Assembly (NCBI GenBank): GCA_031459385.1
Contig: JAVKIP010000003.1
Coordinates: forward strand, 133,192-197,191
Length of the DNA: 64,000 nt
DNA from: Candidatus Fervidifonticultor secundus
GTDB lineage: Bacteria; Sysuimicrobiota; Sysuimicrobiia; Sysuimicrobiales; Humicultoraceae
Reading direction: 5' to 3'
Part shown: piece after piece, positions 15,001 to 18,000 of the stretch
Layout of the letters: each line of letters opens with the position of its first letter
Numbering within the stretch: the stretch's first letter is position 1
Position numbers: made by a program

Positions 15001-18000
15001 TCGGTGCCCCTCGGCAGCACGGTGTTCGCCAACCCCGCCACCAACTACGGCTCCGTGACGCTGGCGGATACGCCCGGCAACCCCAACCCCTGCCCGTCGG
15101 ACCCCGCGCAGCGCGCCACGCTGGTGCTGGACGCGGGCAGCGACCCCACCGCGACGGTCACGTTCCAGATGGCCACGCTGTCGGTCGGCAAGTGCGCCCG
15201 CGTCGAGATCCGCGGGCAGGGGAAGGTCGAACTGCGGTTGCTCGCGCCGACCACCACGGCGCTGCGCACCGTCCAGCGCTCGGTCCTGGGGACCACCTCG
15301 CAGACCGTCGGCAGCGAGGTGGCCGTGGAGGGCCACCGGTTCACGGTCAAGGTGGTGTCCACCCACTCGACCGCCGCCGTCGACTTCAACCAGTCGGGCT
15401 TGATCGCCGGCACGTTCATCGTGCCCAACGGCGGGTTCCACCTGGACCAGGCACAGATCACCAACGGCGCGATCCTGGCGAGGGCCGTCGACTTCGACCA
15501 GGGCACCACCTTCACGTGGGACCCGCGGTCGATCATCGGCGACCAGGTCTACGGCGACTTTCGCCGGCTGCGAGCCTGGAAGGACCAGTAGGCGCCCGAG
15601 AGGGGCCCGGCGCACACGCCGGGTGACGCCGCGCCCGCGTCACCCGGCGTTGTGTTTGTCGCCGGTCCCGCGTCCTGTGCCCCGAGGCGAAGGAGAGCGC
15701 CGCGCGCTATCGACAGCCGTTGTGGCGGGCGGCGATCCGGATCGGATGGGTCGCAGACGGCCCGTCGCGAACCGCTCCCGCGCTTCCGCTACTAGCCGCC
15801 AGGCCTCGGGGGCCGGAGCCCAGCCGTAGATCTCGACCGCCTTCTCCTCCAGGGTCTTGTACACGGTGAAGAAGTGCTCGACCTCTTTCAGGAAGTGGGG
15901 CGGCACGCCGTTCAGGTCGGTGACGTCCGCAAAGCGCGGGTCACCCACGGGCACCGCCAGGATCTTCTGGTCGACGCCCTTCTCGTCCCGCATGTTCAGG
16001 ACGCCGATGGGTCGTACCTCGACCAGGCACCCCGGGAACGTTGGCTCGTAGGTGAAAATCAGGACGTCCAGGTGGTCGCCGTCCTCCGCCAGGGTCTCCT
16101 CAATGAACCCGTAGTCGGCCGGGTAGTGCAGCGGCGAGTAGAGCACGCGGTCCAGGCGCAGCCGGCTGGCGGCGGCATCCCATTCGTACTTGTTGCGGCT
16201 GCCTCGCGCGATCTCCACCAACGCCCAGACGGTAGGCCCGGGCCGCGACATGCTCACCCTCTCGCCTCCTCCACCGCGGCCAGGGTCTGGGCCAGCGCGG
16301 CCACCCGACGCCCCAGCTCGTCGCGGACCGCGCGGTAGCCCTCGAGCCCGCCGCCAGCGGGGTTGGGCAGCGGCCAGTGCTCGCTGCGTACGCCCGGCAC
16401 CACCGGGCAGGCCTCCTCCGCGCACAGCCCCACGATCAGGGCCACGTCGGGGCCCAGCGCCGCCTCCAGGGCCACGGGCCGATGCTGGCTGATGTCGAGG
16501 CCGACCTCGCGCATCGCCTCCACCGCTTCCGGACGCACGCGCTCGCCGGGTTCCGTGCCCGCGGAACCCGCCCGCCAGCCAGCCGGCGCCACCGCGTTGA
16601 ACAGCGCGGCGGCCATCGGCGAGCGGGCGGTGTTGTGATGTCAGACGAACAGGACGCGCGGCATGGCTCCAGGATACCACAGGCCCGCGGCTACGCCCCG
16701 CCCGGCCGCACGGTGACACGGTGACAGGGACGCCCGGAGGGCCTAGCATCGAGGTGGAGGGGGTGCGATGCTGCTCGCGCTGGACATCGGCAACACCAAC
16801 GTCAAGCTCGGGGCATTCCGAGGATCGGAGCTACTGGCGACCTGGCGGGTCGCGACCGATGCGCGGCGGACGCCGGATGAGTACGCGGCGCTGGTGGCAG
16901 CGCTGCTGGGCATGCGTGGGATGACCCCGGCGCGGGTGGAGCGGGTGGTGCTGTGCAGTGTCGTGCCGCCGCTCACCGCAGTGTTTCGCGAGGTTGCGCG
17001 CGACGTGTTTGGCGCGGTCCCGCTGGTCGTCGGCGAGAACGTCGAGACCGGGCTGCGCGTGCTCTACGACCCGCCCTCCGACGTCGGGGCCGACCGGCTG
17101 GTGGCGTCGACCGCGGCCTACCGGCGCCTGGGCGGACCGGTGATCGTGGTGGAGTTCGGAACCGCCACGGTGTTCGACGCGGTCTCGGATGCCGGCGAGT
17201 ACCTCGGCGGCGCCATCCACCCTGGCCTCCAGCTGGCGGCTGAGGCCCTGTTCACGGGCACCTCCCAGCTTCGTCGCATCGAGCTGCGTCGGCCGGCGGC
17301 GGCCATCGGCCGCACGACAATTGCCGCGATCCAGTCCGGGGTGGTGCTGGGACACGTCGGCATGGTCGAGGGCATGGTTGCGCGGTTCCGGCGCGAGGTG
17401 GGCGAGCGCGCCCAGGTGGTGGCCACGGGCGGGCTCGCGCGGCTGATCGCCGCAGAGACGCCCGTCTTCGCTGCCGTCGACGAGGACCTGATCCTGCACG
17501 GCCTGCGGCTCATCGCCGAGGCCACCTGACGGCGCCACGGCCGGCGCCGGGACGGGGGACGGCCAGCATGCCCACGGTGCTCCACGGCAAACACATCGTC
17601 CTGGGGGTCACGGGCAGCATCGCGGCTTTCAAAGCCGCCGACCTGGCGAGCAAGCTCACGCAGCACGGCGCAGCTGTGGACGTAGTGCTCACGCCGGACG
17701 CCGCCCGGTTCGTCACGCCGCTCACGTTCCAGGCCCTGACCCATCGCCCGGTCACCACCGACCTCTTCGACCCGCGGGCCGCGATCGCCATGGATCACGT
17801 GGCCCTGGCGCAGCGGGCCGACGTCATCGTCGTCTGCCCGGCGACGGCGCACACGCTGGCACGGCTGGCGCTGGGCCTGGCCGATGACGCGCTGGCGGCC
17901 ACGGTGCTGGCTTCGCGCGCGCCGCTGGTGGTGGTTCCGGCGATGGACGCCCAGATGTTCGACCACCCGGCGGTGCAGGAGCACGTGGCGCGGCTGCACG

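Follow-up and report, generated by a model that had tools for sequence, protein, structure and literature searches.

Thioredoxin-coupled arsenate reductases (ArsC), such as those of S. aureus pI258 (PDB 1LJL and 1JF8) and B. subtilis (1JL3), have the low-molecular-weight phosphatase (LMWP) fold. The LMW protein tyrosine and arginine phosphatases, for example Wzb, YwlE and MPtpA, have the same fold and P-loop architecture. In pI258 ArsC the catalytic P-loop residue is Cys10, the relay cysteines are Cys82 and Cys89 (C-x6-C), and Asp105 is what we take to be the general acid. The selenocysteine (Sec) arsenate reductases published to date also place Sec at the catalytic Cys. These Sargasso Sea/GOS proteins ('ArsC 1', UxxS, and 'arsenate reductase 2', UxxC) share that feature and the name with the protein described below but have the thioredoxin-like ArsC/Spx fold (COG1393, pfam03960, cd03032, TIGR00014 and NF041106). 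As the first-pass annotation had stated, the passages of PMC13188914 and PMC2398784 on known Sec arsenate reductases place them in pfam03960/cd03032 only. Here, we describe a gene of Candidatus Fervidifonticultor secundus, located in a 64,000-nucleotide stretch of DNA (the window), which appears to encode Sec at the catalytic nucleophile of a pI258 ArsC-like, LMWP-fold protein. This had been the central proposal of the first-pass annotation, and all of the tests that we ran support it.

The coding sequence is on the minus strand of the window (16257..16664). It has 136 codons, with an ATG at 16664..16662, the predicted Sec codon at position 8 and a TGA stop at 16256..16254. From position 16664 the minus strand reads ATG CCG CGC GTC CTG TTC GTC TGA CAT CAC AAC ACC GCC CGC TCG. 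Translation with TGA as U yields 136 residues, beginning MPRVLFVUHHNTARSPMAAALFN. Reading and translating the sequence thus confirmed a single frame, MPRVLFV-UGA-HHNTARS, with the in-frame UGA (U8) at 16641..16643 on the minus strand, which is C23:149832-149834 of the contig. Assembly error does not explain the TGA: contigs from four public hot-spring runs, all of one study and two of them possibly the source of the genome, span 16111..16800 and agree letter for letter. The public runs matching this stretch were these four sets of DNA contigs, with no RNA run among them.

A second copy, on contig C33, had been assigned to the same genome. It matches G005:C35 at 100.000% identity along 3,275 nt, and a contig titled Ca. 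Fervidifonticultor quintus at the same identity along 4,775 nt. Because the C33 contig is identical to a contig from another genus's MAG, two copies in one genome are not supported. The C33 copy is most likely mis-binned, and the earlier caveat that it may come from a contaminating relative holds.

The protein matches Pfam LMWPc (PF01451) at residues 4-124, with 73.0 bits against a gathering threshold of 23.2 (3.7e-20). Searches of NCBIfam and Pfam at E <= 0.01 returned no match to TIGR00014, NF041106 or pfam03960, and none to Wzb in NCBIfam. We reproduced the E-values of 4.8e-21 and 1.4e-20 given previously for NF010053. Even so, the scores are far below the equivalog cut-offs for ArsC (68.9 versus 174.3 bits for TIGR02691; 75.5 versus 215 bits for NF010053). 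An AF2 model (pLDDT 95.3, pTM 0.90) was compared with known structures using Foldseek. ArsC structures were the best matches (1JL3 and 2CD7; probability 1.00, TM 0.82-0.83), and the phosphatases Wzb, YwlE and MPtpA followed at ranks 24-49 with 17-31% identity. The predicted structure thus confirms the LMWP/ArsC fold.

The P-loop pattern C-X5-R-(S/T) is present as U-H-H-N-T-A-R-S (U-X5-R-S; 16620..16643, minus strand), with U in place of C as the nucleophile that follows strand 1. This assignment comes from an alignment of 29 sequences (A3) and from HMMER alignment to 1LJL, 1JF8 and 1Y1L. U8 aligns with Cys10 of pI258 ArsC, and N11, R14 and S15 are invariant in A3. The relay cysteines, previously noted as kept, are invariant across the 29 sequences. 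Cys81 (16422..16424, minus strand) aligns with Cys82 of pI258 ArsC, and Cys86 (16407..16409, minus strand) with Cys89. Asn101 (16362..16364, minus strand) takes the position of Asp105, and part of the orthologues have Asp at this site (LPNP and LPDP variants). Hence, compared with the pI258-type enzymes, to which it is 32-35% identical, the protein has Sec for Cys10, no second P-loop Cys, a C-x4-C rather than a C-x6-C relay, Asn for Asp105 and no ars operon. Unlike Wzb, YwlE and MPtpA, it has ArsC-type relay cysteines and lacks Asp in the D-P motif.

The closest relative of solved structure is an 'arsenate reductase' from Archaeoglobus fulgidus (1Y1L; 1.6e-20, 43% identity). The two proteins have in common VLFVC-IHNTARS-MAEALFNA, the C-x4-C spacing, E-N-P and Asn at the general-acid site. 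They differ in that 1Y1L is archaeal and has Cys, not Sec. We take 1Y1L to be a structural-genomics structure and know of no biochemistry for it. A Cys subfamily, CVANSARSQMAEG...TLCAEE[AV]CP...HWPLPDP, from Gemmatimonadota, Acidobacteriota, Myxococcota and soil metagenomes, also has the C-x4-C relay (40-54% identity). Its Cys codon is TGC or TGT, and it lacks the two RNA hairpins described below. In our tree it is one of three branches next to the Sec clade, and the order of these branches is unsettled.

We consider the gene to encode a selenoprotein with a reductase-type relay, and give this reading a probability of roughly 0.8; Sec insertion and relay chemistry are both deduced from sequence. 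In the proposed reaction, the Sec8 selenolate in the U-X5-R-S loop would attack a tetrahedral oxyanion, for which arsenate is the likeliest candidate. Cys81 would then attack selenium, freeing the reduced product and forming an Se-S bond. Resolution of this bond by Cys86 would leave a Cys81-Cys86 disulfide, to be reduced by thioredoxin, which homology points to as most likely the reductant. Because ACR3 and ArsB are both missing from the genome, and Asn replaces the general-acid Asp, arsenate remains a substrate suggested by homology, and we regard the chances that it is correct as about even.

The genes around the locus bear on this question. An inorganic pyrophosphatase gene (ppa; 15640..16251, minus strand) is directly downstream, with its ATG 3 nt after the stop codon (Pfam Pyrophosphatase 8.4e-54; NF002317 3.8e-45). 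The first-pass annotation had linked the two genes. The link stands in the window and fails as a general rule, since ppa follows at 20 of 44 loci, a count that includes loci duplicated between collections, and these belong to part of family f1 only. PiT/DUF47 genes are 2 kb away in the window. In other lineages the neighbours of the Sec form encode PhoU, a ModA-like binding protein, a MOT1 transporter or an aldo-keto reductase. No ars genes were found beside the Sec form at the loci examined. In this 97.6%-complete genome we found no ACR3, ArsB or ArsC/Spx-family gene.

Thus, the selenoprotein could have a physiological substrate other than arsenate, and a housekeeping role in phosphate or oxyanion metabolism. 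It might act as a phosphatase on phosphoesters or phosphoproteins, by way of an Se-P intermediate, or might reduce or sense a different tetrahedral oxyanion. Such a role would fit the phosphate and oxyanion genes nearby and the absence of ACR3, ArsB and ArsC/Spx genes from the genome. It would also fit distribution: among the phylum's 94 genomes, 41 have the Sec form and only 16 have ACR3 (12 over the cut-off). Furthermore, the classical ACR3-ArsC pairs of the phylum use a Cys paralogue. ACR3 adjoins this C-x6-C ArsC, not the Sec form (in G021 and, by coordinates, also G019), and in G023 a Cys-type LMWP holds the place upstream of ppa. Conversely, both relay cysteines are invariant, although a plain phosphatase could do without them. 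The general-acid Asp is replaced by Asn in many orthologues, a change that in LMW-PTPs would be expected to disable phosphoester hydrolysis. Arsenate reductases account for all of the best matches in sequence and in structure, and no single neighbour is conserved across the whole Sec clade. Arsenate enters cells via phosphate transporters, so the phosphate-gene context is also compatible with arsenate reduction. On balance, we judge a substrate other than arsenate to be possible though unlikely.

The case for a Sec-containing enzyme rests first on conservation of the UGA. Of 61 rows, 44 have one TGA, always at the same codon. These 44 places come from 41 of the 94 Ca. Sysuimicrobiota/CSP1-3 genomes, and the 41 genomes fall in three families of the phylum (f1, f3 and f4). 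The earlier tally within the family was reproduced. Among 34 rows, 22 near-full-length ones (59-99% identity; 21 genomes, the window's genome being counted twice) have one TGA each, and two fragments likewise carry it. No TGA is present in the remaining 10 rows, which are 35-63% identical and include one C-terminal fragment. As claimed before, every TGA row has the codon at the identical place, [VL]-U-x-x-N-x-x-R-S. Cys occupies the aligned position in paralogues within the phylum, in outgroups and in PDB chains 1Y1L, 1LJL and 1JL3. In a wider comparison, 59 loci included 39 Cys loci from other phyla and 17 with TGA, all of the latter from Sysuimicrobiota, 'Armatimonadota' or unclassified-bacterium records. 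A motif script applied to 79 metagenome loci recorded one TGA, 70 Cys codons and nine loci without the motif. One Cys orthologue, P0019, whose Cys is taken from the database protein only and not from DNA, is nested inside the Sec clade of the tree; its contig is not among the 79 loci. A candidate Sec/Cys pair inside genus g21 (G059 and G061) was rejected, because both members have Cys codons and are of a different subfamily (CLHNAGRS...MGCGDQCP), and the TGA counted for G059 lies away from the active site.

Could the TGA be a true stop? The gene would then be a 120-residue ORF from Met17, or a decaying pseudogene. A listing of standard-code ORFs does give the former (16254..16616, minus strand). 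It begins 16 codons into the gene, so that the gene call is short by 16 codons rather than by the 8-9 stated earlier. All public gene calls are also of the truncated form, with database proteins that cover 64-88% of the query and start just 3' of the UGA. Moreover, locus L041 of G030 is an internally deleted copy. The shorter protein, however, would lack the entire P-loop. Some orthologues have Ile or Val at codon 17, and hence the downstream start is not conserved. Conversely, all 31 distinct orthologues have an ATG or GTG exactly 7 codons 5' of the TGA. The intervening M-x-x-V-L-F-V stretch varies at synonymous sites (GTC/GTG/GTT, CTG/CTC/CTT/CTA and TTC/TTT), which argues for protein-level selection on the sequence 5' of the UGA. 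Residues 1-16 are conserved in frame throughout, with N11, R14 and S15 unchanged. A nonsense codon would not be retained at a single site across 41 genomes and three families, and a stop would not account for the Sec machinery and UGA-specific RNA structure set out below. We therefore consider termination at this codon highly improbable.

The RNA that follows the UGA is structured. A co-varying hairpin had been reported here; we find two adjacent ones, both covarying and both absent from the Cys homologues. Hairpin 1 (16570..16628, minus strand) spans columns 16-74, counted from the U of UGA, and has 19 pairs by RNAalifold. Its apical loop is ~37 nt after the UGA, 86.2% of its cells are paired and six pairs have changes on both sides. 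The window's copy folds with an MFE of -42.7 kcal/mol (z -3.37). Hairpin 2 (16550..16567, minus strand; columns 77-94) has a 6-bp stem and a 6-nt loop, CGGGNA. It is invariant apart from the loop N and one covarying pair, and 98.3% of its cells are paired. This covarying pair, 78-93, occurs among 29 distinct rows as CG (16), GC (9), AU (2), UA (1) and UG (1); all four Watson-Crick types are present and no row is unpaired.

Over both hairpins, 89.1% of 725 cells pair, compared with 32.8-46.2% when the 3' partners are slid. The covariation score is 0.170 against 0.071 for shuffles, and none of 500 shuffles reached 0.170. Pairing in the Sec genes is 0.86 for hairpin 1 and 0.98 for hairpin 2, whereas the same columns in Cys homologues give 0.53/0.40 and 0.35/0.37, respectively. 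Similarly, the mean fold z is -2.04 in Sec genes versus -0.19 and +0.14 in Cys homologues. Synonymous codon identity is 0.64 for codons 9-31 against 0.51 for codons 38-128 (Mann-Whitney p = 0.0016), and the codons of S34, A35 and T37 are 100% identical among orthologues.

The element agrees only in part with the published bacterial SECIS model. According to the passages of PMC13188914 that give the model, a loop at 37 nt, as in hairpin 1, is at the upper limit of UGA distance. In orthologues whose hairpin 1 loop opens with CUC or AUC, neither of the first two loop positions is a G. Hairpin 2 agrees with the stem and loop rules given in the same passages but is 79 nt from the UGA. No Rfam family matched the RNA, which gave only two sub-threshold chance hits. 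The hairpin-2 motif occurs twice in the genome, both times in this gene (the C23 and C33 contigs). A SECIS motif shared with other genes was rejected as a candidate; relaxed versions of the pattern yielded 80 and 44 hits, which were scattered and had no tie to in-frame TGA codons.

The genome encodes tRNA-Sec, selA, selB and a Sec-type selD, and selA was found in 78 of the 94 genomes of the phylum. An in-frame TGA followed by a hairpin is also present in selD and in a peroxiredoxin/deiodinase-like gene on contig C36, where FGSFT-U-PYC presumably marks the redox-motif position. The hairpins of these two genes look unlike those of the LMWP-fold gene. Decoding of the UGA as Cys, Trp or Gly by a suppressor or near-cognate tRNA has nothing specific in its favour and is scarcely credible, given that TGA is an ordinary stop in this genome, as at the end of the same gene, that tRNA-Sec, SelA, SelB and SelD are present, that selD and the C36 gene have the same arrangement, and that conserved downstream RNA structure is a hallmark of SelB-dependent decoding. 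The UGA at 16643..16641 is thus almost certainly read as Sec, as judged from these sequence comparisons. Sec would be inserted by the SelA/SelB/tRNA-Sec system, directed by the downstream mRNA with its long hairpin (+16..+74) and its short, invariant-loop hairpin (+77..+94).

A requirement for Sec formate dehydrogenase was rejected as the reason for this machinery, as no Sec-type FdhA was found in the genome. The search for GrdB, which bears on glycine reductase as a reason, gave no match in any control genome.

A wider reading, which we hold only tentatively and consider doubtful with all its parts taken jointly, can be added to that of a Sec-containing relay enzyme. The protein would be the first natural selenoenzyme of the phosphotyrosine-phosphatase-type P-loop fold. 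Its RNA would be a two-part SECIS, in which the 59-nt spacer hairpin brings hairpin 2, the real SelB site, within ~14 nt of the UGA. In Ca. Sysuimicrobiota the enzyme would be a core, non-ars housekeeping protein, with the task of detoxifying or sensing arsenate, or a different phosphate mimic, that comes in through phosphate transporters. Since the genome lacks a Sec formate dehydrogenase, the enzyme may also be among the small number of clients for which the phylum retains its Sec machinery.

The sequences indicate a real, unannotated selenoprotein family of a kind not listed so far. Literature searches, supplements of selenoproteome papers aside, found no LMW-PTP-type selenoprotein, in line with the first-pass annotation. 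The 119 prokaryotic selenoprotein families in a 2026 catalogue, mostly of thioredoxin-like folds, include none with the LMWP fold. The LMWP/ArsC fold would thus be a new fold class for Sec, absent from that catalogue and from NCBI family models. As a consequence, every public copy appears as an "arsenate reductase" that is truncated at its N terminus and catalytically dead. If functional, the RNA element, which is off the standard bacterial SECIS spacing rule, widens the scope for SECIS search tools. The enzyme may also provide a second selenium-arsenic link, after the Sec arsenite methyltransferase that is among the families in the selenoprotein review. Together with its Cys relatives, it offers a natural Sec/Cys pair for asking why selenium was chosen to attack a tetrahedral oxyanion in a P-loop. 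For the phylum itself, which is uncultivated and widespread in hot springs and soil, and enrichments of which are described in PMC11604079, the corrected gene call restores a probable active enzyme to at least 41 genomes.

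On the minus strand from position 16664, the window sequence reads ATG CCG CGC GTC CTG TTC GTC TGA CAT CAC AAC ACC GCC CGC TCG. Translation of TGA as selenocysteine (U) gives a single 136-codon frame, MPRVLFVUHHNTARSPMAAALFN...GLCAEEACP...HWPLPNP..., closed by a TGA stop (16256..16254). Under the standard code, the sole ORF listed is one of 120 residues from Met17 (16616). Contigs of four hot-spring DNA runs, all from one study and two possibly the window's own source, cover 16111..16800 with 0 differing letters. Hence, the TGA did not arise by an assembly error. We conclude, with a probability of about 0.9, that this UGA (codon 8; 16643..16641) is decoded as Sec. 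Several independent lines lead to this conclusion: conservation of the UGA, translation of the flanking codons, Cys homologues, the Sec machinery and the otherwise normal role of TGA, which is an ordinary stop at the end of the Sec gene itself.

At the family level (34 rows), exactly one TGA was found in each of 22 near-full-length rows (59-99% identity, 21 genomes) and TGA was also present in two fragments. The 10 rows without TGA were paralogues of 35-46% identity or a C-terminal fragment. Across the phylum set of 94 genomes, all of one order, 44 of 61 rows had one TGA; these came from 41 genomes in families f1, f3 and f4. The codon position was constant in every case, [VL]-U-x-x-N-x-x-R-S. 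All 31 distinct orthologues had ATG or GTG exactly 7 codons 5' of the UGA, and kept the V-L-F-V strand on that side with synonymous codon variation. Between the UGA and Met17, residues N11, R14 and S15 were invariant among the aligned orthologues. Codon 17 was Ile or Val in some of them; thus, the annotated start is not conserved. The aligned site is Cys in the phylum's own paralogues, in 39 loci from other phyla and in PDB chains, and U8 aligns with Cys10 of pI258 ArsC. In a tree, the Sec clade formed a single group of 31 rows (support 90/94). Nested within it was a metagenomic Cys orthologue (P0019, 58% identity), its Cys known from the database protein alone. One locus, L041 (G030:C5), holds an internally deleted Sec-gene copy of ~65 codons that retains the TGA and is probably decaying. 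Two unpublished genomes are counted in these tallies, G024 as one of the 31 rows in the codon comparisons and G016 as one outgroup row in the tree; no conclusion depends on either.

The window's own genome (G000) encodes tRNA-Sec, selB, selA and selD. The first three cluster at C12:151482-157010, with selB and selA side by side. The selD gene (C1:104038-104961, minus strand) has its own TGA, in the motif C-A-G-U-A-S-K. We found selA in 78 of the 94 phylum genomes, and in 38 of the 41 with the Sec form; it was not seen in G003, G032 and G054 (completeness 84, 73 and 93%). A search of G000 for a Sec-type formate dehydrogenase found none, so the phylum keeps its Sec machinery for other clients. 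A second candidate selenoprotein, outside the window, is an unannotated peroxiredoxin/deiodinase-like thioredoxin-fold gene (C36:4583-5310, plus strand; TGA at C36:4787) with the UxxC motif FGSFT-U-PYC.

The first-pass annotation counted two copies of the Sec gene in this genome and warned that the one on contig C33 may come from a contaminating relative. The warning was well placed, and the count of two is not supported. C33 (12,984 nt) has a GC content of 69.1%, versus a genome mean of 71.0%. It shares 100.000% identity with G005:C35 across 3,275 nt, and with a 51-kb contig titled Ca. Fervidifonticultor quintus across 4,775 nt. The contigs matching its locus (L002), namely G005:C35 (L028) and L052, are binned to another genus. 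The Sec proteins of C33 and of the window's contig, C23, are only 62% identical and the estimated contamination of G000 is 5.5%. Most likely, C33 belongs to a co-occurring relative and was mis-binned. Another genome, G042, has three Sec copies and 9% contamination.

We then consider the RNA 3' of the UGA. When 30 orthologous stretches (29 distinct) are aligned without gaps, the alignment supports two adjacent hairpins, at columns 16-74 (hairpin 1) and 77-94 (hairpin 2) from the U of UGA. Pairing was found in 89.1% of 725 cells, versus 32.8-46.2% after a shift of the 3' partners by 1-3 columns. The covariation score was 0.170 versus 0.071 in shuffles, and 0 of 500 shuffles reached it. Hairpin 1 had changes on both sides at pairs 18-72, 24-66, 36-53 and 38-51. 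Hairpin 2 has the stem G-N-U-C-C-G and the loop CGGGNA. Its single variable pair (CG 16, GC 9, AU 2, UA 1, UG 1) was never unpaired. Its partners are the third base of codon 33 and that of codon 38, and the pairing dictates whether residue 38 is D or E. Elsewhere the hairpin is invariant, and this accounts for codon identity of 100% at S34, A35 and T37. Synonymous codon identity was 0.64 for codons 9-31 versus 0.51 for codons 38-128 (Mann-Whitney p = 0.0016). As a control, pairing in the same columns of Cys homologues was 0.53 and 0.40 for hairpin 1, and 0.35 and 0.37 for hairpin 2. The fold z was -2.04 for Sec genes and near zero for Cys homologues. Thus, the structure is specific to UGA-bearing genes.

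The element does not neatly match the published bacterial SECIS model (PMC13188914, section 5), in which 37 nt from the UGA is the upper limit for the loop. The loop of hairpin 1 starts 37 nt past the UGA, and orthologues that read CUC or AUC there lack its G. Hairpin 2 meets the published stem and loop rules but sits 79 nt from the UGA. Were hairpin 1 to act as a closed spacer, hairpin 2 would be only 14 unpaired nt away. No Rfam family matched the RNA. The peroxiredoxin/deiodinase-like gene on C36 has a textbook SECIS-like hairpin, with a GGC loop 17 nt past its UGA; hence, the organism uses the canonical form elsewhere. We regard the RNA element described here as an atypical candidate SECIS.

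The Sec protein matches Pfam LMWPc, the low-molecular-weight phosphatase (LMWP) model, from residue 4 (73 bits, cut-off 23.2). In NCBIfam only arsenate-reductase models matched, far under their cut-offs: NF010053 (4.8e-21; 75.5 bits versus 215) and TIGR02691 (68.9 bits versus 174.3). The AF2 model was confident (pLDDT 95.3). Its best structural matches were the ArsC enzymes 1JL3, 2CD7, 1JF8 and 8P6M (TM 0.80-0.83); YwlE, Wzb and further LMW-PTPs ranked lower. Among sequences with a solved structure, the nearest is Archaeoglobus fulgidus ArsC 1Y1L (uncharacterised; 1.6e-20, 43% identity), which resembles the Sec protein in VLFVC-IHNTARS, a C-x4-C pair and E-N-P. Invariant Cys81 and Cys86 align with the relay residues Cys82 and Cys89 of pI258 ArsC. 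Asn101 aligns with its general acid, Asp105; position 101 is N or D among orthologues. From this homology, a relay mechanism is reasonable. In the simplest version, the enzyme would run the established ArsC disulfide cascade and begin it with selenium. Sec8 would attack the oxyanion, Cys81 would attack the selenium and Cys86 would resolve the intermediate to give a Cys81-Cys86 disulfide. Thioredoxin would then recycle the enzyme.

Adjacent genes bear on the substrate. An inorganic pyrophosphatase gene (ppa), identified by profile matches, has its ATG 3 nt past the Sec-gene stop. Beyond the intervening coaX (16768-17529) and coaBC (17568-18791), and downstream of both, 18776-20502 (plus strand) encodes a PhoU-like DUF47 protein and a phosphate transporter of the PiT family, ~2 kb away from the Sec gene. 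Elsewhere in the window, 13038-14185 (plus strand) encodes two small pilin/pseudopilin-like proteins with a prokaryotic N-terminal methylation motif, adjoined by a long ORF (13450-15591). The first-pass annotation stated that a pyrophosphatase gene follows each of the two copies. Within the clade the link is narrower than this implies: ppa is 3' of the Sec gene in 20 of 44 loci, all within part of family f1, and no neighbour gene was shared by the whole clade. Other lineages have PhoU (one case, L045, apparently being the same contig as in G024), a ModA-like binding protein, a MOT1-type transporter or an aldo-keto reductase. In G023, a genome without the Sec form, a Cys-type LMWP/ArsC (C-x6-C) is directly upstream of ppa (L039, G023:C234, 1483-2498), the window's layout with a different paralogue.

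Three points favour arsenate as the substrate. The close relatives that have been characterised are without exception arsenate reductases, the relay cysteines speak for reductase over phosphatase action, and arsenate enters cells via phosphate transporters. Against it, we found no ACR3, ArsB or ArsC/Spx gene in G000 (97.6% complete), and ACR3 in only 16 of 94 phylum genomes (12 over the cut-off). In G021 (L043, G021:C90, 290-1923), and by coordinates in G019 (G019:C241), ACR3 (SBF family) is followed by a Cys-type C-x6-C ArsC paralogue, a classical resistance pair separate from the Sec gene. The recurring neighbour theme of phosphate or oxyanion handling would also suit an enzyme acting on another phosphate-like substrate, or as a phosphatase. 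We consider this alternative rather unlikely. Arsenate itself we place at even odds.

The missed UGA has consequences for annotation. Among the best 120 of 1,020 public matches, nearly all span 64-88% of the query. Those fetched begin at the UGA or just past it, in some cases at a GTG or ATC that follows directly; public proteins of the Sec clade are truncated. Of the 150 top-ranked representatives in a 50%-identity library, 5 begin at profile position 17. In two database proteins the truncated Sec gene is joined to a neighbour, the pyrophosphatase in P0132 and an upstream MOT1-like transporter frame in P0144, an example of the annotation errors that a missed UGA causes. No NCBIfam 20.0 model captures the Sec protein. 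The main text of PMC11604079, which places the genera Ca. Fervidifonticultor and Ca. Calidihabitans in Ca. Sysuimicrobiota (CSP1-3), has no word starting 'selen'. In the table of a 2026 review (PMC13188914), which covers 119 prokaryotic selenoprotein families, arsenate reductases appear as TIGR00014 (UxxS) and NF041106 (UxxC). The terms 'phosphatase', 'tyrosine', 'PF01451' and 'LMW' are all absent from the review's main text. Passages on the GOS and Sargasso Sea Sec arsenate reductases define them as pfam03960 / cd03032 / COG1393. No LMWP-fold selenoprotein turned up in full-text literature searches, supplements and subscription papers being outside their scope. Taken together, this selenoprotein family is real and unannotated; it is the Sec form of an enzyme kind already known, and its fold is so far missing from the selenoprotein list.
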